A stretch of DNA of 37,344 nt from Acidimicrobiaceae bacterium (GCA_028344675.1 JAOMBT010000006.1:1-37344); one strand, 5' to 3'. Shown: positions 2,509 to 12,525, numbered from the stretch's first letter. Translations and numbers: made by a program. Notes: generated from the sequence alone by a model not told the origin.

Positions 2509-3345
2509 ATGAAAAAAACTTCATATTTTAAAATTGGTTCTGGGTCGAGAAAAGGTTTTATTTCTAAATTTCAAGATCAAGAATTTAAAGAAACTATAAA
2601 GGAAAATAATATTTCTAAAATAAGAAATCAGCTCTTTACTAAAAGCTCAGAATTAATGGATGAATTAGTTGATAATTGTATATCGTTGACCATAACTTCA
2701 CCTCCTTACAATATTGGAAAAGATAGTGACGAAGATTTAACAGATGATGAATACTGGAAAATGATAACAAAGGTATTTGAAGAAGTATATAGAGTGACTG
2801 AGTCTGGCGGCAGGCTAGTAGTAAATGTTGCAAACCTTGGAAGAAAGCCATATATACCTTTTTCGAAATTTTTTATTGAAATAATCACAGAAATTGGATT
2901 TCTGATGAGAGGCGAGATAATATGGCAGAAATCTAAAGGAGCTAACGCAAATTTTGCATGGGGAAGTTGGCTTTCTGCTTCGAATCCGGTAATTCGTGAT
3001 ATTCATGAGTATTGTTTAATTTTCTCAAAAGATTCAATGAAAAATTCAAGTAAAGGAAAATCGACAATTGAAAAAGAAGAATTTATGGAGTCAACTTTAT
3101 CAATATGGAATATAAGTCCAGCTAGAGCAAAAAAAATAGGTCATCCTGCTCCTTTTCCTGTTGAGTTAGTAAAAAAATTTATAAATCTATATAGTTTTAA
3201 AAATAACCTTATATTAGATCCTTTTATGGGTAGTGGTTCAACAGCAATTGCCTCAAGAATGCTTGAAAGAGATTACATTGGATATGAAATAAACCCTGAC
3301 TATGTAAAAATAGCAAATAAAAGAATCAAAGAAGAAATTAGTTAA
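2509..3345 (+). CDS. site-specific DNA methyltransferase, beta class (N4-cytosine/N6-adenine)
   Basis: Catalytic TSPPY precedes HPAPFP and the SAM-binding DPFMGSGST (beta motif order). SPPY is typical of m4C enzymes. Confidence 0.92.
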   Translation: MKKTSYFKIGSGSRKGFISKFQDQEFKETIKENNISKIRNQLFTKSSELMDELVDNCISLTITSPPYNIGKDSDEDLTDDEYWKMITKVFEEVYRVTESGGRLVVNVANLGRKPYIPFSKFFIEIITEIGFLMRGEIIWQKSKGANANFAWGSWLSASNPVIRDIHEYCLIFSKDSMKNSSKGKSTIEKEEFMESTLSIWNISPARAKKIGHPAPFPVELVKKFINLYSFKNNLILDPFMGSGSTAIASRMLERDYIGYEINPDYVKIANKRIKEEIS

Positions 3346-5059
3346 CTAAATCCCAGGCTGAGAATAGATCTTTATATATATCATTTTTGCTTAATAAATT
3401 TTTATGATTATCAAATCCAACAAGCTTACCTTTATCCATTACAATAATTTTTTCAGCATTCAATATAGTTTCTAATCTGTGAGCTATAACAATTGAAGTT
3501 TGGTAGTCCAACACTTTGTCAGTTGCTTCAAGGATAGAATTTTCAGATTCAATATCTAGATTTGCAGTAGCTTCATCAAAGACAATAATTTGCCTTCTTG
3601 CAAGAACCGCTCTTAATAATGAAATAAATTGTCTTTCTCCTGCAGATACATTTGAACCTCTTTCTCCAACATTTTGATTTAAGCCTTTTTCATATCTATC
3701 AAACCAGCGAAGAACTCCTATTTCTTCAAGTTCTTTCTCTAATTCAATATTTTTTGGATCTGAATAGATTAAATTATCTCTTATTGTTCCTCTAAATAAA
3801 AAACTTTCTTGAGGTACGTATGCAATATTTTTTCTAGCCCATCTTTGTGTTACGTTTTTGGATGACTCTCCATAAAAGTTTACTTCTCCTTTAGTAGGCA
3901 AATAAAATCTAAGAACTAATTTTGCAATAGTGCTTTTACCAGCTCCTGTTTCTCCAACGATGGCAATTTTTTCACCTTTATTGATTGAGATATTTACATC
4001 ATGTAAAACAGTATCTCTACCATAAGAGAAATCTACATTTTTGAACTCAATTACTTTGTTTGAATCCATTTGCGGTTCAATATCGCCTGTCTTGCTTAGC
4101 ACTTGCTCTTCGTCTAATATTGAAAATACTTTTTTCATAGAAGAGCCAGCCGAACGAAGGACATCGTAGTTAAACGAAAGTTGAATAAGCGGGTCGAAAA
4201 AATAATTTAAATAAAATAATAATGCGACTAACTCACCAACTGATAAAGTTCCTTCATTGATTCTTACAGATGCAAACCAAATGACTACAGCAATAGATGT
4301 AACTCTTGTAATTTCTAGAAAAGGAAAATATATTGCGATATTTTTGGCAGATTGCATATTAGCTTTTAAGTGTTCATCATTTACATTCTTAAACCTTTCA
4401 AATTGAGTTTTTTCATCTGAATAAGCCTGTATAATTCTTACTCCTGAAATTCCTTCCTGAAGAGATGAAAGAACTTGACCAATCCACTCTCTTATTGACC
4501 AATAAGCTTTATCAGCATGACTACGAAATATTCGTGTTGCTATCCCCAGTAAAGGTAAGATCAAAAATGATAGTAATGCTAATTGTGCATCAACTAAAAA
4601 TACAGCAATTGTAGCTCCAAGAATAGTAAGCAGAGAAGTAATGACACTACTGGCACCTTCCCGCGCAAACTCATTTAAGCTTTGCATGTCTGAGGTCATA
4701 CGGGCAACTAATACACCTGTTTTGTTTTTTTCAAAGTAACTTATATCGAGTGAAGATAAATGTCTAAACAGTTTTTCTCTTACGCTTTTAACATATGATT
4801 CACCGACTAAACCAATAGCAAGAAGAGCCTTACTTGTGACAAAATAAAGTAAAACTAATACAATGAAATAATAAAGACTTTGTTCAAGCAAATATGAGTA
4901 ATTTGACTTAAGTACTCCTTCATCAATTCCTCTTGATATTAGTTGAGGGCCAACCATTCTTAAAGCAGATCCAGCCATAGCAATCAAAGAACTTAAAAGA
5001 AAAGCCCTTCTTACCTCAGGCACTAACCTCATTGAACGCAAAAATGTGTTATCTTTCAT
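3338..5059 (-). CDS. ABC exporter, fused TMD+NBD (heterodimer subunit 2)
   Basis: TM domain, Walker A GETGAGKS, signature VSAGERQ, Walker B VFDEAT, AHRL. ATG 5059 (MKDNTF) preferred to the track's 5071. Confidence 0.92.
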   Translation of the reverse strand: MKDNTFLRSMRLVPEVRRAFLLSSLIAMAGSALRMVGPQLISRGIDEGVLKSNYSYLLEQSLYYFIVLVLLYFVTSKALLAIGLVGESYVKSVREKLFRHLSSLDISYFEKNKTGVLVARMTSDMQSLNEFAREGASSVITSLLTILGATIAVFLVDAQLALLSFLILPLLGIATRIFRSHADKAYWSIREWIGQVLSSLQEGISGVRIIQAYSDEKTQFERFKNVNDEHLKANMQSAKNIAIYFPFLEITRVTSIAVVIWFASVRINEGTLSVGELVALLFYLNYFFDPLIQLSFNYDVLRSAGSSMKKVFSILDEEQVLSKTGDIEPQMDSNKVIEFKNVDFSYGRDTVLHDVNISINKGEKIAIVGETGAGKSTIAKLVLRFYLPTKGEVNFYGESSKNVTQRWARKNIAYVPQESFLFRGTIRDNLIYSDPKNIELEKELEEIGVLRWFDRYEKGLNQNVGERGSNVSAGERQFISLLRAVLARRQIIVFDEATANLDIESENSILEATDKVLDYQTSIVIAHRLETILNAEKIIVMDKGKLVGFDNHKNLLSKNDIYKDLFSAWDLVN

Positions 5060-6815
5060 TTTTGAAACCACTCGTCTGACTTTCTAAGAATAAAGATTTA
5101 TAACTTTCAATTTCCTCTATTAATTTTGTGTGATTACCCTGACCTCGTACTTTTCCATTTTCAAGAAAAATAACCTCATCACAGAGCTCAATTGTTGGGA
5201 CTCTATTCGTAATTATTAATGTAGTCATATTTGACATGACTTTTTTAAGTTGATTTCTAATTTCTTCTTCGGTCGAAGCATCAACAGCAGATAGAGCGTC
5301 ATCAAGTATTAAAATTCTTGGTTTGCGTAATATTGCTCTAGCTAAAGCAATTCGTTGTCTCTGACCTCCTGAAAGACCAAATCCCCTTTCTCCAACTTTA
5401 GTTTCATATGATTCAGGTAACTGAGCTATAAATTCATGAGCTCTTGCAATAAGTGCGGCATTTTCAATTTGCTGTTGTGTAGCTTTATCCGAGCCAAGAG
5501 AAATATTATCTTTAGCTGAATTGGAAAATAAAAAGCTTTCTTCAAAAGCGAGACTTACCTGGGATCTTAATTCATCAAGTTTTACATTGTGAATATCTAC
5601 TCCATCTATTTCAATTTTTCCTGATTCAATATCATAAAGCCTTGGAAGCAAATAAGCTAAAGTTGATTTTCCAGAACCAGTAGATCCAACAATAGCAACT
5701 GTTTTCTTTCCATCAATCTCAAAAGATAAATTGTCAAATATTTTTTCATCACCGTATCTAAAATTAACATTTGAAAATTTTAAACTTCCACTTCCTGTTT
5801 CTGGAAAACTTTCTGATGAATTGCCATCAACAATACTTGGAGTCTCATTAAGTAAGTCTAGAATTCTATTACCTGCAGTGACACTTGACGGTATCTCTGA
5901 CAAGAACCACGCAGTAATTCGTAATGGCCAAAGTAGCAAAAAGACATACTGAGTAAAAGCTATAAAATCACCCAACGTTATAAAATTATTTATAGATAAA
6001 TAGCCTCCAAGAAGTAAGACGAGTAGTGTTATCACCATTGGTATCAATTCAAACATTGGAATAAATTTTGTTCTTAATTGCAAATATTCAAGTGATGAAT
6101 TGTAAATACCGGAGATTGCTGTCTCTACCTTAGACGAAGCTAAATCCTCATTTCCAAAAGCTTTTACAACTCTTATTCCTCCAAGTTGCTCTTCAACTTC
6201 TGTTGTCATCTGAGCTTCAGCTTCTTTAACTCTTAATGAAATTCCTAAGGCTTTTGAAGAAAAATTAGAAGCTAACCATAAGACAGAAGGAATAGATAAA
6301 AGTACCAAGGCGCCCAATGGCAGACTTAAGCTGAGTAAGGTGATGCTTAGAATTATAAGAAGTAATATATTTGCAGAAGCTAATGGAGCAATTGCGTATG
6401 CAAGCCTGACTTGAGAAGCATCGCTTGAAGCCCTTGCCATTAGTTCTCCTGTTGGAACTTTATCATGATATTGAAATGCCAACTTTTGCATGTGTGTAAA
6501 TATTCTATTTCTAATTCCAGCTTCTACATTAAAAGAAACATGCATAGAGAAGTACCTTCTTATACCAATTGATGAAGCACGTAGGTAACCAGCAATCAAC
6601 ATGAATGAAATTAAAATAATCAACATTTGTCTATTTTCTATAACAATTGCATCATCAATAATTCTTTTTATGATGTAAGGCTGAATAACAATCAAAAAAC
6701 ACCAGACCACGGCCGAACCCATTGAAATTAGAAAACTTTTTCTATTTTCTTTTATTCCATCTTTATAAAAGTTAATAGCTTTTTTAAATTCAGGAGTTTT
6801 AAAAATTTTAAACAT
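5049..6815 (-). CDS. ABC exporter, fused TMD+NBD (heterodimer subunit 1, degenerate ATP site)
   Basis: Walker A GSTGSGKS, LSGGQRQR, ILDDALS (catalytic E>D) and TNR in place of the H-switch, as in TmrAB-type heterodimers. Likely start ATG 6815 (MFKIFK). Confidence 0.92.
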   Translation of the reverse strand: MFKIFKTPEFKKAINFYKDGIKENRKSFLISMGSAVVWCFLIVIQPYIIKRIIDDAIVIENRQMLIILISFMLIAGYLRASSIGIRRYFSMHVSFNVEAGIRNRIFTHMQKLAFQYHDKVPTGELMARASSDASQVRLAYAIAPLASANILLLIILSITLLSLSLPLGALVLLSIPSVLWLASNFSSKALGISLRVKEAEAQMTTEVEEQLGGIRVVKAFGNEDLASSKVETAISGIYNSSLEYLQLRTKFIPMFELIPMVITLLVLLLGGYLSINNFITLGDFIAFTQYVFLLLWPLRITAWFLSEIPSSVTAGNRILDLLNETPSIVDGNSSESFPETGSGSLKFSNVNFRYGDEKIFDNLSFEIDGKKTVAIVGSTGSGKSTLAYLLPRLYDIESGKIEIDGVDIHNVKLDELRSQVSLAFEESFLFSNSAKDNISLGSDKATQQQIENAALIARAHEFIAQLPESYETKVGERGFGLSGGQRQRIALARAILRKPRILILDDALSAVDASTEEEIRNQLKKVMSNMTTLIITNRVPTIELCDEVIFLENGKVRGQGNHTKLIEEIESYKSLFLESQTSGFKNER

Positions 6816-6864
6816 GTACACCAATCTTAAATGATTTAAATATTTAAAAATAACCCAAAGGACT

Positions 6865-6882
6865 TTGTGCATTATTTCACAA
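6865..6882. promoter_or_regulatory. palindromic operator TTGTGCA-TTAT-TTCACAA (Rex/CRP-like) upstream of menA-menG
   Basis: One mismatch to the Rex consensus TTGTGAA-N4-TTCACAA; ends 19 nt before the menA ATG, just 5' of a candidate -10 TATTAT (6886-6891). Confidence 0.7.
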
Positions 6883-6901
6883 GCATATTATTGTACTTTC
6901 T

Positions 6902-8419
6902 ATGACAGATGTTTTAGATAAAAAAATAGAACAAGTATTAGATTCAGCTGATCGTATGTTTATTGCTACTAGTGTCGGAGGTAACTCCTCTGGTGCATCA
7001 GTATTTTTTAGTAGAGATGGTGAAGATTTAGTATTCTTCACATTCCATCCAACAAGAAAGGCTGAACAGATTAGGCTAAACCCCCGTGTTCATGTTGTAA
7101 TCTGGCCAAAAGGTCAGGAAGGAATTGAAGGTCTTCAAATTGACGGAGAGTGTTACAAAATAAAAGATGAAGATGAAAAAAAGAAAGCCTACAATCTTGT
7201 ATTAGAAACAACTCATGCATTCAAGGAGTTTATGGAAGATGACTTTCTCATTGAAAATGATGTTGTTGGCTACTACAGAGTTAAACCTACAACAATTAAA
7301 TATGTTAATTTCTATCAAGAAGAAAAATTTGAATGGAAAACTATTCCATCCAATAAAACATCGGCAATAAAGATGGCATTCAAATTGGGGTTAAAAAGAA
7401 TTGGACTCTGGTTAAGGACTATCCGTGCTCCCTTTCTTACAGCTACTTTTGCTCCTATCTTAATTGGTGCTGCTGTAGCTTGGAGCGATCTTAAAGATTC
7501 AGGTTTTGATTTATCCTGGTCATGGAAAATGTTTTGGCTTGTTTTAGCTGGAGCATCATTAGCTCAAGTAGCTACGAATGCATCTAATGATTACTTTGAT
7601 CATACATCAAATGCAGATGAAATAAATAAGGTAGCAAGTCCATTTAATGGTGGGAGTAGGGTAATTCAGGTAGGGCTTATGACACCTGGTCAAGTATTAA
7701 TTACTGCACTTGTTAGCATTGCTGGAACTATAGCAATTGGTCTTTATTTAAATCAACAAATTGGTGGTGGATATTTTGCTAATACTCCAATCTTATGGGC
7801 TGGAATCCTTGGAACATTCCTTGCTCTTGGTTATACAGGTGATCCTGTAAGACTTGGTTACAAAGGGTTTGGTGAAGTAGCAATTGCACTAGGTTTTGGA
7901 CCGGTTATGGTAATGGGAGCACACTACGTACTTACAGCACCAATTCACAATAATATTCTTTCAAGTTGGAACTGGGTTGAGGCCCTAGTTGCCTCTATCC
8001 CAATAGCAATATTGGTAATGCTTATTGTCTGGATAAATCAATTCCAAGATGCTCCATCTGATGCAGCAGTGGGTAAAAATACTTGGGTAGTTAGAACAGC
8101 TGAAGAAGGTGAATGGATGAAGCTAGAGAAGCCAATGAAACTGTATAAGTACTTCATGATTGAATCCTTTATTGCTGTAGCTTTCATTGGGGTGCTGAGT
8201 TTGTTTACAGATATTGGCACAGTTTATGCATTTATAGCCCTTGCTCCATTAGCTCTAGTTTGGAAAGCTTTCAAAATGGCAGATGAGTGGATGATTAAAT
8301 GGAACAACCCTGAGGCAGACAGGCAAAAAGTGCCATATGAGCTCCTACTTGTCAACGTTTCAACAATTGGAATTCATTTCCTTACAGGATTGCTTTTAGC
8401 TGCAGCATATATTTTATAA
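6902..8419 (+). CDS. menA: fusion of a PNPOx-like flavin split-barrel domain and a MenA-type (UbiA family) 1,4-dihydroxy-2-naphthoate prenyltransferase
   Basis: aa ~1-150: FIATS...LVFFTFHPTRKAEQIRLNPRVHVVI...GLQIDG split-barrel pattern. aa ~170-505: RAPFLTAT, NDYFD, GGSRVI, GFGE, INQFQDAPSDAAVGKNT and multiple TM helices. menG follows directly. Confidence 0.85.
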   Translation: MTDVLDKKIEQVLDSADRMFIATSVGGNSSGASVFFSRDGEDLVFFTFHPTRKAEQIRLNPRVHVVIWPKGQEGIEGLQIDGECYKIKDEDEKKKAYNLVLETTHAFKEFMEDDFLIENDVVGYYRVKPTTIKYVNFYQEEKFEWKTIPSNKTSAIKMAFKLGLKRIGLWLRTIRAPFLTATFAPILIGAAVAWSDLKDSGFDLSWSWKMFWLVLAGASLAQVATNASNDYFDHTSNADEINKVASPFNGGSRVIQVGLMTPGQVLITALVSIAGTIAIGLYLNQQIGGGYFANTPILWAGILGTFLALGYTGDPVRLGYKGFGEVAIALGFGPVMVMGAHYVLTAPIHNNILSSWNWVEALVASIPIAILVMLIVWINQFQDAPSDAAVGKNTWVVRTAEEGEWMKLEKPMKLYKYFMIESFIAVAFIGVLSLFTDIGTVYAFIALAPLALVWKAFKMADEWMIKWNNPEADRQKVPYELLLVNVSTIGIHFLTGLLLAAAYIL

Positions 8420-9043
8420 TTGCCTGAATCAGCAAATTTTTCAAATATTTACAAATTTTACGATTTAATTAATACGGTTCTTACACTTGGTTTTGATAAA
8501 TCTTGGAGAAGTAAAGCAGCAAATAATCTTACTGGGACTTCAGTACTAGATTTAGGAAGTGGAACTGGTGCTGCTTTTGCACAGTTGACAGATTATGAAA
8601 CTACAGCTTTGGACCCAGATAAAAAGATGTTGGAATTAAATATATTTGAAAATAAAGTTCTAGGTACTGCTGAAAAATTACCTTTTGAAGACAAAAGCTT
8701 TGACAATATATTTTGTAGTTTTGTCTGGAGAAATATATCCGATACAGATAAAGCACTTGGTGAAATATACAGAGTCTTAAAACCTGGAGGAAAGTTTGTT
8801 CTACTTGATATGACAAGACCGAAAAATTCAATATTAAAAATACTACATAAGATTGGGTCATTCAAAATACTGCATCTTATTGGTCTTTTAACATTTAATT
8901 TAAAAGAGTATAGATTTCTATATAGATCTCTAGACTTTTATCCCCAACCTGAAAATCACCTCAAGATGGATAATTTTATAAATATAAATATTGAGAGAAT
9001 GGGGTTGTTTGGTTTTGTTTACTTGGCAGTATTTACAAAATAG
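8420..9043 (+). CDS. menG: demethylmenaquinone methyltransferase (UbiE/MenG family)
   Basis: YDLINTVLTLGFDKSWR, VLDLGSGTG, LPFEDKSFD, EIYRVLKPGG. The TTG start abuts the menA TAA. Confidence 0.82.
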   Translation: MPESANFSNIYKFYDLINTVLTLGFDKSWRSKAANNLTGTSVLDLGSGTGAAFAQLTDYETTALDPDKKMLELNIFENKVLGTAEKLPFEDKSFDNIFCSFVWRNISDTDKALGEIYRVLKPGGKFVLLDMTRPKNSILKILHKIGSFKILHLIGLLTFNLKEYRFLYRSLDFYPQPENHLKMDNFININIERMGLFGFVYLAVFTK

Positions 9044-9065
9044 ATAATTTTTTAAATATATAAAT

Positions 9066-9692
9066 TTACTGATTGGCTAAAGCTACAAGCAATTGTCCGA
9101 CTTGATCTTGTGGTAAGTTTCCACTTCTTCTTGCAACAACTTTTAAATCTTTATCTAAAAACACCCAGTATGGAAAAGAGTTGACGCCATAAGCAGTACC
9201 GATATCTCTATCTAAATCATAAATCTGAGTTTCTGACCAGCCTTCTCTTTCTAGCCAATCATGTGGTGGGTAATTGTCTCTTGATCTATCAATTGATGTA
9301 GCTACGGCAATAATTTCTACACCCTCTGGAACACCAATAATGTCAATATACTCTTGCATAACTGGAACTTCTTTCTGGCAGTATCCACACCAGTGTGCTA
9401 AAAACAAAAGAGCTTTTGCATTACCATTTTTTTCTAGAGTGACTATCTCAGAGTTTTCATTTGGCCCTGAAAATATTGGTGCATCAAGACCTCTTGCAAC
9501 ATTATCATCGTTTTCTCCAGAATATTCTGGTAAACCTTGGCCTGTAATCGTAGTCTCACCCTCAGGTAAATTTCCATCTAAGGGTTCATCAACTAAAGAT
9601 ACGCCTATTGCAACAGCCAAACCTACTACAAGAACTACTGATCCTGCGATAATGAAGTTTTTATTCAACTGTTTCCCTTCTCGAAATATCAT
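9066..9692 (-). CDS. membrane-anchored thioredoxin-like thiol-disulfide oxidoreductase (TlpA/DsbE/DsbF-like)
   Basis: N-terminal TM helix, LAHWCGYC (CxxC) and the YGVNSFP cis-Pro loop. Confidence 0.88.
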   Translation of the reverse strand: MIFREGKQLNKNFIIAGSVVLVVGLAVAIGVSLVDEPLDGNLPEGETTITGQGLPEYSGENDDNVARGLDAPIFSGPNENSEIVTLEKNGNAKALLFLAHWCGYCQKEVPVMQEYIDIIGVPEGVEIIAVATSIDRSRDNYPPHDWLEREGWSETQIYDLDRDIGTAYGVNSFPYWVFLDKDLKVVARRSGNLPQDQVGQLLVALANQ

Positions 9693-10179
9693 AATACAAC
9701 AATGCTAGGAATATTGTTAAAAATCCTGTAGATGCCATGACAGGTATGCTAATAAATCCAAAAATATCTACATATTTTAAATTACAAGGAACATCGATTG
9801 CGCAAGAACCTCCTCCACCACCACCATTTTGCAAATATATATGATAAATACCAATACCAACACCAACTGCACTTAAATAACCGACTTTGATTACTGATTT
9901 GTTAAATAAACCGATTATTAAAAATAAAGCTACCGGATACATAAGATAACGTTGATACCAACAAAACTTACATGGAATAAAACCTACAACTTCAGAATAG
10001 ATTATGCTTCCAATTGAAGAAAAGACGGCAACACTAGTTGCAAAATTATAAAACTGGTCATTGATTAATTTTCTAAATCTTTTTTTTGTAAATATGAAAT
10101 ACAAAATTAGCGCACTTATGGCCCATGCAACAAAAGTGAAGAAACCAAAAAGTGTATTAAAAAAGATGATTAAATCCAT
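9661..10179 (-). CDS. dsbB: disulfide bond formation protein DsbB/BdbC
   Basis: PCKFCWYQR motif, second Cys pair SCAIDVPC and TM helices. Start set at ATG 10179 because the track's extension crosses the rhodopsin terminator. Confidence 0.88.
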   Translation of the reverse strand: MDLIIFFNTLFGFFTFVAWAISALILYFIFTKKRFRKLINDQFYNFATSVAVFSSIGSIIYSEVVGFIPCKFCWYQRYLMYPVALFLIIGLFNKSVIKVGYLSAVGVGIGIYHIYLQNGGGGGGSCAIDVPCNLKYVDIFGFISIPVMASTGFLTIFLALLYYDISRRETVE

Positions 10180-10194
10180 ATAGAATTTTACCTT

Positions 10195-10230
10195 AAAAAA
10201 AATGATAGGCGGACAAAGCCACCTATCATT
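10195..10230 (-). terminator. intrinsic terminator of the rhodopsin gene
   Basis: Minus strand AATGATAGGTGG-CTTTGT-CCGCCTATCATT (12-bp stem with one G-U pair) followed by a T run, 22 nt after the rhodopsin stop. Confidence 0.85.
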
Positions 10231-10252
10231 AAATTTTTGTTGTTGAAAAGTC

Positions 10253-10912
10253 TTAGACTTTTTCTCCTGATTTGATTCTTGCCATTCCAAGAACTAATAC
10301 ACCAAGACCAACTTTGTTAATAATGTCAGCCACTGTATAAAGTACTTCTCTGATAGCATCAAAATCACCAGCTACTGGAGCTAGATATCCTAAAGGATAT
10401 ATAATCCAGCCAATAAGTATAAGGTTTTTGATTTTCTCAAACTGATCTGCCTCTGCTCCTTTGAGTCCCATTCCTTCTGCTTGAAGGTTTCTCATCAAAT
10501 AAACATATGCAGCCATTGCTACAACAAACCCTACCCAGTATGCATCACTGCCTGCAGCTGATGTCTCACCATAGTATCCGCCACCAATCATTACGACAGC
10601 AGCCAATCCCCAGTTTCTAACTTTTTCGTTATATTCTGCACCCGAAGATGTTACGGCAAGTACCTCTACGAACATTAATGGTACTGTTAAGATCCAGTCA
10701 ACATACCTTAAACCAGTATCATATGATCCACTATCCCAAGATGCTCCCATCTTTTGGTAGTGATACCATGCTATACCAGTTACAAGAGCGGAGATATATA
10801 CTCCTCTTCTGTGTTTTGGATCAACTTCTCTTGATGATGCAAGTAAAAATACTGTACCAGCGAGCATACCCACTGTTGCAACCATAAAGAGTCTATAAGT
10901 AAGTTCAGCCAT
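10253..10912 (-). CDS. microbial rhodopsin, DTE-motif proton pump (marine actinobacterial clade/proteorhodopsin-like)
   Basis: RYVDWILTVPLMFVE gives D-T-E with Met at the PR-105 tuning position (green type); helix-B His in WYHY; retinal Lys in DIINKVGLG; SD AGGAG at 10922-10926. Confidence 0.96.
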   Translation of the reverse strand: MAELTYRLFMVATVGMLAGTVFLLASSREVDPKHRRGVYISALVTGIAWYHYQKMGASWDSGSYDTGLRYVDWILTVPLMFVEVLAVTSSGAEYNEKVRNWGLAAVVMIGGGYYGETSAAGSDAYWVGFVVAMAAYVYLMRNLQAEGMGLKGAEADQFEKIKNLILIGWIIYPLGYLAPVAGDFDAIREVLYTVADIINKVGLGVLVLGMARIKSGEKV

Positions 10913-11034: not shown

Positions 11035-12525
11035 TTAAAGAGTAGTAACTTCTTTTGAAGTGTTTCCCCATTTTTCTAAGTAAGGCTTTAAATTAAATTT
11101 CCTTGCAGCTGAATCAGATGTCATGTATCTAATTTTTCCATATATTTCTCTTTCTGGACCCCATGCTCTGTCATATCTTCCTAAGACCCAGAAAACTCCG
11201 GAGTATGAATTAGGATCTCTTCCATCAAGTGCATATCGATCATTAAGTGTCATCATGTATGACAATGCCATTTGGGGATTAGGAGACCATTCCAGTATTT
11301 TTTTACCCCAAAGCATCCTTAAATAATTTTGAATAACTCCTTCTTCTCTCAACTGGTTTTGTGCTGCATTCCAAATTTCATCATGAGTTTCTGAAAAAGT
11401 TAATTGATCTAAGGAGTAAATATGTCTTCTATCATCTATCGTGTGCTCTTCAAGTGTTTTAACTGCCCACTCAGGTAAAGAAGAATATTGATTATAGTTG
11501 GCTCTTCTAACACACGTATGATACCCCAATTCTCTCCATGTAATTAATTCATCTAGAAAACTATCAAAATTGAGACTTCCACCCCACCATCCCTCTCTTC
11601 TGCCAACTAAATTTGGTTTAATTTGCTCTGGAGACCAAGACTCATGGTTAATTAATTTCTCAAATATTTCATGAGTTGATATATGACCATAGTGTAAATA
11701 GGGAGACATCTTACTACTTGCATTTTTGGATGGGTTGCTACTGTATTGTGCATAATCATTAAAACCATCTTTTAAAAAACTATCAAATTGTTTTGATGCA
11801 TTCTTGTAGCCGCCCTGAATTGAACTAATCTTTACGGTTTTGTCAATATTGAGTGAATTTAAAAATTTATCTATATCTGTATTCTTGAAATCAAATAACG
11901 GCCATTTTTTTAATGTAGAGGAAATCAAATTTTCAGTGAATTTTTTATTCAATCTTGATAATGGGAACTCATCGGGAATCTCTGTTATAAAGTCTTCTAA
12001 ATTTTTATGTAAGTACCGTCTAAAGTCATGTGCTCGTACGTATTCTTTAGGAGAAAGTCGAATGGGAGCTATTCCATTTGAGTCAACTAGTTCATACCTT
12101 GCAGATATTTCACCAGAAGCTTTAACAGTCATTTGGGGAACGAAATATGTAGGATAATCATCAGTAACAACTACTGATGCATTTCTAGCAAGATCTTGGA
12201 GAAGTCCATCTGCTTCGCCTGGAGAGGTCTCAATGAATGGATAGTAATAGGCCATTGTTTTTGATATCTCATCATTCATTTCACTCATTCCATCAAGCAT
12301 GAATTTATGAAAACGTAAACTTGACATTGGATAGTCTAAAATTAAAGGCTCTAATATAACTAATGGTTGAGAAAGCTTATTTGCCCACTCTACTGCTCGT
12401 TGAAGAGCATAGTTATATTTTGTTCTTTTAAAAGCAATAACCCAGTACACAACATATGAGGAGGAATTAATGTCTGGAGTAATTTCTTTTAAAGTAGTTA
12501 CTCGTGAAACAGGTACATTAGTCAT
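11035..12525 (-). CDS. phr: deoxyribodipyrimidine photolyase, class II CPD type
   Basis: YVVYW...R...NYAL, SKMSPYLHYG, DELITWREL, NYLRMLWGKKILEW, DGRDPNSY and GKIRYM are class II signatures. Confidence 0.92.
   Translation of the reverse strand: MTNVPVSRVTTLKEITPDINSSSYVVYWVIAFKRTKYNYALQRAVEWANKLSQPLVILEPLILDYPMSSLRFHKFMLDGMSEMNDEISKTMAYYYPFIETSPGEADGLLQDLARNASVVVTDDYPTYFVPQMTVKASGEISARYELVDSNGIAPIRLSPKEYVRAHDFRRYLHKNLEDFITEIPDEFPLSRLNKKFTENLISSTLKKWPLFDFKNTDIDKFLNSLNIDKTVKISSIQGGYKNASKQFDSFLKDGFNDYAQYSSNPSKNASSKMSPYLHYGHISTHEIFEKLINHESWSPEQIKPNLVGRREGWWGGSLNFDSFLDELITWRELGYHTCVRRANYNQYSSLPEWAVKTLEEHTIDDRRHIYSLDQLTFSETHDEIWNAAQNQLREEGVIQNYLRMLWGKKILEWSPNPQMALSYMMTLNDRYALDGRDPNSYSGVFWVLGRYDRAWGPEREIYGKIRYMTSDSAARKFNLKPYLEKWGNTSKEVTTL

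Follow-up and report, generated by a model that had tools for sequence, protein, structure and literature searches.

What does a soluble split barrel do in front of a menaquinone prenyltransferase? The question is raised by a gene in a 37,344-nucleotide stretch of DNA from an Acidimicrobiaceae bacterium (GCA_028344675.1 JAOMBT010000006.1:1-37344; the whole stretch analysed is referred to as the window), which a first-pass annotation had read as one frame of 505 amino acids (aa), joining a flavin-type split barrel to a complete MenA and running directly into menG. Most Gram-positive and many anaerobic bacteria use menaquinone as their respiratory quinone, and MenA is regarded as an enzyme of one domain. 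The window has a G+C content of about 33% and a gene order (mfd, pth, the ribosomal protein L25 gene, eno, DUF501, ppx; families from a scan of the window ORFs) that we take to be actinobacterial. The two-domain architecture and a role of the fused protein in quinone biosynthesis are very probable, and confidence is high that this is a MenA working with the coupled methyltransferase to make menaquinone. The fuller proposal, in which the menaquinone prenyltransferase of Candidatus Actinomarina is a two-domain protein that includes a tethered flavin reductase, is given a probability of roughly 40%.

The gene is a single open reading frame (ORF; Table 1), and Pfam places both domains above cut-off, PNPOx_N at residues 5-97 (E 8.6e-10, 39.5 bits versus a cut-off of 28.1) and UbiA (PF01040) at residues 184-457 (E 7.7e-25, 88 bits versus 34.2). 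The short strings quoted in the first-pass annotation are all present, IAT at residues 21-23, FFTFHPTRKAEQIRLNPRV at 45-63 and GLQIDG at 77-82, and menG does start directly past the stop, the TAA at 8417-8419 being immediately adjoined, in the same frame, by the TTG at 8420. The full-length AlphaFold model has a predicted local distance difference test score (pLDDT) of 91.0 and a predicted template modelling score (pTM) of 0.84, the latter suggesting that the barrel is packed on the membrane domain in a fixed way, as far as a model can tell. In this model the linker sits in a helix (155-173) running into the first membrane helix.

Table 1. Coordinates of the fused gene, its parts and the adjoining methyltransferase gene in the window (residues are those of the fused protein).
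Feature	Position	Strand	Basis
Fused gene: split barrel, linker and MenA-like prenyltransferase	6902..8419	+	ORF, ATG start, 505 codons and TAA
PNPOx/GSP26-like split beta-barrel, soluble, residues 1-150	6902..7351	+	Pfam, AlphaFold, Foldseek
Most conserved barrel stretch, residues 45-63, FFTFHPTRKAEQIRLNPRV	7034..7090	+	Translation; fused-protein alignment
Linker, residues 151-170, poorly conserved, includes Met158	7352..7411	+	Pairwise identity; model
MenA-family (UbiA superfamily) polyprenyltransferase, residues 171-505	7412..8416	+	Pfam, profile alignment, model
First Asp-rich motif NASNDYFDHTSNAD, residues 226-239	7577..7618	+	Translation; aligned to E. coli MenA
Second Asp-rich motif NQFQDAPSD, residues 379-387	8036..8062	+	Translation; aligned to E. 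coli MenA
UbiE/MenG-like S-adenosylmethionine-dependent methyltransferase, 207 aa, TTG start	8420..9043	+	ORF; Pfam Ubie_methyltran

The fusion is genuine, because it is found intact in 76 complete loci and in 115 of the 120 best protein clusters. The latter derive from a search of 5.8 billion clustered proteins (8000 candidates scored, 395 hits, the 120 best examined), in which these 115 carry both Pfam domains at lengths of 494-662 aa; the five exceptions measure 324-350 aa, each with longest contigs of only 1.1-2.5 kb. Two entries holding the C-terminal domain only (P0021 and P0033, 82-87% identity) begin at the internal Met158 (window 7373-7375) and are truncated gene calls, not stand-alone MenA proteins. 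As for the N-terminal domain, 99 short hits were obtained, the five that were read being fragments, and no free-standing relative of the domain, close or distant, was found among the 99 by a word-based search, which distant forms may escape. One N-only cluster (P0273, 170 aa, 63 members) ends in a tail that is unrelated to the gene and that we recognise as translated sequencing adapter; the entry is chimeric and does not represent a split gene. In the genome scan, performed on one genome per species, 133 relatives were matched and 80 loci kept. In 76 of these loci a single frame gives a match over practically the entire protein, and the remaining four (L065, L068, L074, L079) are cut by contig ends. 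Independent projects show the single frame in single-cell genomes, in metagenome-assembled genomes (MAGs) and on contigs reaching about 1 Mb. The arrangement as two separate genes, which the first-pass annotation had named as the sign of an assembly artefact, was met in none of the 76 complete loci.

Single-cell genomes and MAGs of Candidatus Actinomarina/Actinomarinales account for 57 of the 80 loci (74-96% identity, L025 being counted here), on which ground the window is assigned to Actinomarina. The other 23, at 50-60% identity, lie outside Actinomarinales and are labelled Calditrichota, Fidelibacterota/Marinimicrobia, KSB1-type 'Zhuqueibacter', Chlorobiota/Bacteroidota, Chloroflexota (Anaerolineales), Gammaproteobacteria and, at one locus (L060), Caldisericota. 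L025 (3.2 kb, labelled Flavobacteriales) is 83% identical to the window gene, is adjoined by the Actinomarina ABC gene and looks mis-binned. L060 (labelled Caldisericaceae) has Calditrichota-like neighbours, namely a solute-binding protein gene and a 787-aa ORF upstream and pntAB downstream, and is probably mis-binned.

When 1.84 billion cluster representatives were searched exhaustively with HMMER, 4717 hits were obtained at E<=1e-3. The best 150 of these, together with the window protein, were assigned to architecture classes by means of two domain profiles: 29 have the barrel plus UbiA (window included), 74 have UbiA only, 18 have an N-terminal extension of another kind, 100 aa or longer, and 30 are fragments. 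Two implications of the first-pass annotation had thus to be given up: the architecture is not rare, since 29 of the 121 full-length entries (window protein included) have it, and its actinobacterial framing was too narrow, the fusion being carried by at least seven other phylum-level groups. In a quick maximum-likelihood tree of 129 C-terminal domains (30 fragments excluded, eight core-clade members added) the window falls in a 33-row group (SH-aLRT 93) with 25 barrel-fused and eight apparently unfused rows, and within it in a nested starred clade of 17 rows (99), 13 of them fused; 12 fused rows stand elsewhere in the tree. Because the 'fused' label needs 13 changes on this tree, at least nine of them forced by starred branches, the sequences would indicate one of two things: the fusion arose or was lost repeatedly, or some 'unfused' rows are truncated gene calls.

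Across phyla the mean pairwise identity is 0.62 for the N-terminal domain, 0.57 for the C-terminal domain and 0.31 for the linker. The ratio of nonsynonymous to synonymous substitution rates (dN/dS) in 15 Actinomarinales genes is 0.050 for the N-terminal and 0.049 for the C-terminal domain, with 64 and 68, respectively, of the 105 possible pairs passing the dS filter; dS is near saturation (1.7-1.9) and the ratios are accordingly rough. Both domains are under equally strong purifying constraint, and the N-terminal domain is clearly needed, being at least as conserved as the catalytic one.

The C-terminal domain has the characters of the UbiA superfamily: the Pfam score, two Asp-rich motifs of the NxxxDxxxD type and an all-helical fold of about nine helices, the nine long helices that follow residue 176 in the AlphaFold model being the predicted membrane helices. 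Invariant positions among 31 fused proteins include N226, N229, D230 and D239 in the first Asp-rich motif, where NASNDYFDHTSNAD aligns with NLANDYGDAVKGSD of E. coli MenA, and N379, F381, D383 and D387 in the second, where NQFQDAPSD aligns with NNLRDINSD. E. coli MenA and the fused protein share 26% identity (BLASTP, E 8e-18), and a profile of the 31 fused proteins aligns with residues 7-306 of the 308 of the E. coli enzyme (hhalign probability 99.6, E 3.8e-24), in agreement with the earlier statement that the MenA part is complete. All strong NCBIfam matches of this domain are MenA models, with no homogentisate, 4-hydroxybenzoate or chlorophyll prenyltransferase among them. By sequence profile the nearest of the solved structures is that of UBIAD1 (8djk, E 4.7e-6), which also appears among the Foldseek matches of the membrane domain together with the archaeal lipid synthase DGGGPS (6m31/7bpu). 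The curated MenA model TIGR00751 is passed by the fused P0134 (116.4), which belongs to the same 33-row group as the window, by unfused relatives at 37-45% identity (e.g. P0165, 132.1, and P0171, 121.6) and by the differently extended P0149 (119.7) and P0170 (108.9); on the sequence evidence the window clade is therefore placed within the MenA family, as a divergent branch of it.

The downstream protein matches Ubie_methyltran with an E value of 1.3e-31 (110.2 bits versus a Pfam cut-off of 20.1). A methyltransferase gene lies directly past the fused gene in 53 of the 57 Actinomarinales loci, being absent in L046, L049 and L061, while L074 ends too early to tell; outside Actinomarinales it does so in four of 23 loci (L056, L058, L075 and L078, by tblastn), and the same four are the carriers of a UbiE-like gene among the 20 non-Actinomarinales loci scanned with Pfam. 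The coupling to menG proposed by the first-pass annotation is thus a conserved trait chiefly of Actinomarinales. In all 15 printed Actinomarinales junctions with a downstream methyltransferase its TTG start stands 0-1 nt past the stop. Read-through from MenA into MenG was considered and rejected, because the 1-nt spacer present in several Actinomarinales loci shifts the methyltransferase frame; the junction is one of stop-start coupling. Nor is the methyltransferase ever part of the fusion in the material at hand: its domain is absent from all 120 best relatives of the fused protein, and none of the three longer methyltransferase hits is fused with MenA or with the barrel.

The N-terminal domain was recognised as a split barrel only by profile search and fold search, a PDB sequence search with this domain alone giving chance-level matches (best eL31, E 0.011, and 3db0, E 0.089). 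Its separate AlphaFold model (residues 1-165; pLDDT 91.0, pTM 0.85) has strands at 18-48, 62-86 and 122-147, and 189 matches at E<=1e-3 were returned by Foldseek against the PDB, the best being 2i02 (E 4e-10), 3db0, 2arz, 2re7 and 3ec6, with target-normalised TM-scores of 0.76 for 2i02, 0.83 for 3db0 and 0.79 for 3ec6. Together with the PNPOx_N match, this bears out the split-barrel assignment of the first-pass annotation. In 19 fused proteins from several phyla F45, F46, T47, R52-I57, N60 and P61 are invariant. The corresponding stretch, FFT...TRKAEQI..NP, aligns with FYTNLGSRKAHQIENNPRV of E. coli PdxH (hhalign E 2.5e-5, over PdxH residues 43-102 only), so that the TRKAEQI..NP invariant in the core clade pairs with SRKAHQI..NP of PdxH. 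That segment of PdxH presumably holds the phosphate of flavin mononucleotide (FMN), and residues 45-63 may, by this likeness, be a flavin-phosphate site. The cut-off of the PdxH model TIGR00558 is not reached (17.4 bits versus 180), nor is that of the PPOX-class model for coenzyme F420 (TIGR03618, 17.8 bits versus 79.05). The latter score and the spread of the fusion over at least seven other phylum-level groups make an F420-specific role unlikely; phyla in which F420 is uncommon are among those that carry the fusion.

How the two halves might work together can be outlined. The membrane domain would attach the polyprenyl chain to 1,4-dihydroxy-2-naphthoate (DHNA), and the methyltransferase would then complete menaquinone. 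In UbiA enzymes, as in the published archaeal structures, the N-terminus and the Asp-rich active site are on the cytoplasmic face, so that the barrel should lie beside the active site. There it would bind a flavin, probably FMN, through the TRK...NP motif, and the flavin would hold the naphthoquinone ring in the quinol state, acting either on air-sensitive DHNA before prenylation or on demethylmenaquinone before methylation. Keeping either compound reduced would allow prenylation and methylation to proceed in oxygenated seawater; in addition, given an Actinomarina genome of about 1 Mb, the barrel might allow menaquinone to be made from head groups that other microbes supply as oxidised naphthoquinones and that the cell scavenges. 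Confidence in the barrel as a flavin module that keeps the ring reduced is moderate to low. It is doubtful, and offered here tentatively, that the barrel is a dedicated membrane-tethered naphthoquinone reductase, a counterpart of NdbB/NDC1 performing a step missing from the textbook bacterial pathway and perhaps also permitting head-group salvage.

Several observations weigh against the proposal of a menaquinone-forming MenA with a tethered flavin reductase. The window protein stays below the curated MenA cut-offs (TIGR00751, 77.5 versus 102.15; NF004751, 110.5 versus 264), the lower score being accompanied by two insertions, one after the first Asp-rich motif (SPFNGGSR) and one before the last helix (WN..ADRQK.PYELL), and its neighbour stays below every methyltransferase equivalog, with 128.7 bits versus 158.35 for MenG (TIGR01934). 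Of the names given in the first-pass annotation, MenA holds as family kinship and MenG as a match to the Pfam UbiE family, neither at the level of the curated equivalogs. The rest of the pathway is not found nearby. The earlier remark that the window has no other men gene proved right, since no Men/Mqn family was recognised in the 29 other window ORFs scanned and E. coli MenB, C, D, F and H gave no tblastn match in the window; the same five queries found nothing near the fusion in 81 sequences (1.38 Mb), and no Men/Mqn family exceeded its NCBIfam cut-off in 80 further ORFs from 14 loci. These neighbourhood searches cover about 20 kb around each fused gene. In the same 81 sequences tblastn gave two weak matches for MenE, to genes of acetyl-CoA-ligase type, and for MenA the fusion itself only, in 78 of the 81. 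With regard to the barrel, the best Foldseek matches mix flavin-binding, heme-binding and uncharacterised proteins, so that the fold does not name the cofactor. R52 and K53 vary in deep fused relatives (30-36% identity), where only Q56, I57 and N60 persist, and this speaks against a flavin site common to all fused forms. The MenA-barrel protein has no NAD(P)H-binding module attached to it. Finally, the fusion is also present in lineages bearing the label of anaerobes, which would have less need of protection from oxidation.

The same N-terminal position is occupied by other domains in MenA relatives, and this also counts against a reductase. PAS domains stand there in P0180, P0204, P0249 and P0260, with a further one found by BLASTP in P0219, and four relatives carry a domain of about 185 aa whose nearest ESM Atlas clusters, DUF2378 at 0.88, are a lead only. 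Another N-terminal domain of about 145 aa gives hhalign E 0.14 versus the barrel profile and 0.80-0.82 in the Atlas, where the leads for the other extensions are all below 0.9. By profile comparison the extensions of the P0216 and P0149 groups do not resemble the barrel (E 0.14 and 0.62), and the N-terminal domain of P0250 is a divergent barrel (probability 97.5). With PAS and other domains seated there, the MenA N-terminus looks like a recurrent docking point for small ligand-binding modules. The best surviving rival is built on this pattern, namely that the barrel is a sensor or regulatory domain. With a flavin or some other small ligand bound, it would respond to the redox or metabolite state of the cell and adjust prenyl transfer by allostery, and would itself reduce no pathway intermediate. 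The PAS-fused relatives favour it somewhat more than the first-pass annotation had allowed, and the loss of the R/K motif in deep fused forms and the missing NAD(P)H module of a reductase point the same way; feedback of DHNA on menaquinone synthesis is described for MenD in the available part of PMC9835592. However, the PAS-fused proteins are placed in other parts of the tree than the window group and for this reason need not share the role of the barrel, the N-terminal domain of the core clade is as conserved as the catalytic one, and its motif can still be aligned with that of an FMN-dependent oxidase. A sensor is therefore an alternative to be taken seriously, but on balance not a likely one.

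Split barrels usually dimerise, and the domain could be a helper that uses no redox cofactor, capturing and handing over the aromatic head group or dimerising the enzyme. Many of the PNPOx-like Foldseek matches have no assigned activity, the predicted packing of the barrel on the membrane domain would suit such a task, and a strongly conserved segment (107-129) lies outside the putative phosphate motif. Against this stands the motif shared with PdxH, with R52-K53 and N60-P61 invariant, and we consider a helper of this kind unlikely.

A further alternative concerns the product, the enzyme pair making a prenylquinone other than menaquinone or prenylating another aromatic acceptor that the barrel prepares. 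Both proteins score below the curated MenA and MenG cut-offs, and the methyltransferase matches the methyl-plastoquinone model MpqE (107 bits versus a cut-off of 335). DHNA-pathway genes are missing from the neighbourhood, a 4-hydroxyphenylpyruvate dioxygenase gene is found about 6.4 kb upstream of the fused gene in one locus (L062:2466-3554), and the fusion is present in Gammaproteobacteria, which usually rely on ubiquinone. On the other side, the strong family matches are all MenA models, P0134 passes the MenA cut-off from within the window's own group, and menaquinone is the quinone used by Actinobacteria in the table available from PMC3914697, so that a different product appears rather improbable.

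Heme has even less in its favour as the ligand. A barrel of the type of HugZ, MSMEG_6519 or At3g03890 would link quinone synthesis to heme status, and heme-binding split barrels (5bnc, TM 0.71, query-normalised; 6m0a; 9bl1) do occur among the later Foldseek matches, beside NimA-like proteins and true PNP oxidases. Such proteins, however, have about 240-260 residues and a second domain, and the conserved motif of the window barrel resembles that of the flavoenzyme PdxH. A heme site is also disfavoured by the N-terminal domains of 19 fused proteins, in which no His or Cys is invariant; heme binding is thus very improbable. Last, the short N-only and C-only entries of the protein collections might suggest that assembly or gene calling has joined two separate genes, but these entries are fragments (the C-only ones starting at Met158 on contigs of 1.1-2.5 kb) and one frame is kept in independent projects of different kinds, which leaves an artefact with a practically negligible chance.

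The genes around the fusion are arranged in Actinomarinales as two ABC exporter genes (-), the fused gene and the methyltransferase gene (+), and thioredoxin-like, DsbB-like and rhodopsin genes (-). In the window the exporter pair (half-transporters of 577 and 607 aa, 3338-6872, -) is divergent from the fused gene, with 29 nt between the start codons; its best models are MsbA-like, then more weakly CydD/CydC, all below cut-off, and the pair is conserved beside the fused gene in Actinomarinales. Farther upstream, a DNA methyltransferase gene (2509-3345, +; N6_N4_Mtase, E 5.5e-46) has no recognised restriction enzyme among the neighbours scanned. On the other side a thioredoxin/ResA-like gene (9066-9692, -) and a gene for a DsbB/BdbC-like disulfide oxidoreductase (9661-10290, -) converge on the methyltransferase gene, and both stay near the fused gene across Actinomarinales, even where they are upstream of it (L044-L048). 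DsbB-type enzymes hand electrons to quinones, and this neighbour may mark a quinone-linked gene neighbourhood. Next come a rhodopsin gene (10253-10912, -; Bac_rhodopsin, E 3.7e-33), whose helix C, RYVDWILTVPLMFVE, we read as the D-T-E pattern of proton pumps and whose position is the same in most Actinomarina loci, and a class-II photolyase-like gene (11035-12525, -; TIGR00591, 358 bits versus a cut-off of 550). A promoter and terminator scan of 6600-9300 gave nothing informative, with four promoter-like sites versus 11.6 in shuffled sequences.

Outside Actinomarinales the neighbourhoods vary, except for the four loci with a UbiE-like gene and for four Calditrichota-type loci with transhydrogenase genes downstream: pntAA, pntAB and pntB follow on the same strand in L060, L062 and L063, and pntAA only, before the contig end, in L064. 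Such neighbours might mean that the electrons come from NADPH, or be there by chance. Upstream of the fused gene, L062 (5952-7763) and L064 (4243-6054) each have a Flavin_Reduct gene and a gene with a weak likeness to homogentisate dioxygenase; the dioxygenase genes of these two loci are probably for tyrosine catabolism, and homogentisate is also a prenylquinone head group. Shikimate-pathway genes occur nearby in two loci, aroQ as the adjoining gene in L075 and a DAHP synthase gene about 6 kb off in L069. In a single Anaerolineales locus cofG and cofH, which code for the FO synthase that forms the chromophore of F420, are found 6-8 kb upstream (L077:1711-3908), as is a ribBA-like gene, with unrelated genes in between; an ORF of this locus tried as MqnC/MqnE scored below the cut-offs of both models and is CofH.

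The architecture is already in the databases, where NCBI names it 'UbiA family prenyltransferase' or 'hypothetical protein' and JGI 'DHNA octaprenyltransferase', in one case 'DHNA octaprenyltransferase / NimA-like'; the fusion is a real, widespread and uncharacterised variant of MenA. A full-text literature search, with subscription journals mostly outside it, found no account of a fusion between UbiA/MenA and a split barrel. Among the papers on Actinomarinales and menaquinone, as far as their accessible text goes, none concerned with Actinomarinales quinone synthesis was found. The accessible parts of PMC12008989 and PMC5317091 have nothing on quinone synthesis. The point of interest is that abundant ocean bacteria (Actinomarina, Marinimicrobia) and several sediment phyla carry a second, equally conserved domain on MenA. 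If the barrel is a redox module, bacterial menaquinone synthesis would include a step of reduction or quality control that has gone unrecognised; were it a sensor instead, quinone supply would have a direct switch. Since the family is generically labelled and scores below the MenA cut-offs, pathway reconstructions of these lineages may wrongly score menaquinone synthesis as incomplete.

Compared with known systems, the closest is E. coli MenA itself (b3930; TIGR00751, NF0047xx), with which the window protein shares an end-to-end alignment, both Asp-rich motifs and nine predicted helices, and from which it differs by the 150-aa N-terminal split barrel and linker, by the two insertions and by falling below every curated MenA cut-off. 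The human menaquinone-4 synthase UBIAD1 (8djk), which acts on a reduced head group of the menadione type, belongs to the same MenA/UBIAD1 branch (Foldseek TM 0.56, target-normalised) but has no fused soluble domain and only 18% identity in the Foldseek alignment. The PAS-MenA and other extended MenA proteins (P0180, P0204, P0249, P0260; the P0149 and P0216 groups) are of the same family and have an N-terminal domain of 125-200 aa; in them, however, the domain is PAS, a possible DUF2378-like one or one without assignment, and they stand elsewhere in the tree. As for the barrel, the PNPOx/GSP26-type proteins 2i02, 3db0 and 3ec6 have the same fold (TM 0.76-0.83) at 16-22% identity by Foldseek, and E. 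coli PdxH shares the motif F-x-T-x-x-x-[ST]-R-K-A-x-Q-I-x-x-N-P-R-V, whereas the window barrel is tethered to a membrane enzyme. According to the available part of PMC12204192, quinone reductase families that depend on FMN and others that depend on F420 both belong to the split-barrel superfamily. A functional precedent for a split barrel acting at the membrane is offered by the Ddn/FDOR-A proteins of mycobacteria, F420H2-dependent reductases of menaquinone as described in the accessible portion of PMC11841060; these are not fused to MenA, and the window barrel shows no detectable membership of an F420 family. The proposed role has its analogue in NdbB/NDC1 of cyanobacteria and plants, which, in the part of PMC5299476 at hand, reduces demethylphylloquinone, a prenylated naphthoquinone, ahead of MenG action. 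Here the likeness is one of function, NdbB/NDC1 being a separate protein of unrelated fold, a type II NAD(P)H dehydrogenase with its own NAD(P)H site, whereas in the fusion the barrel is carried by the prenyltransferase itself.

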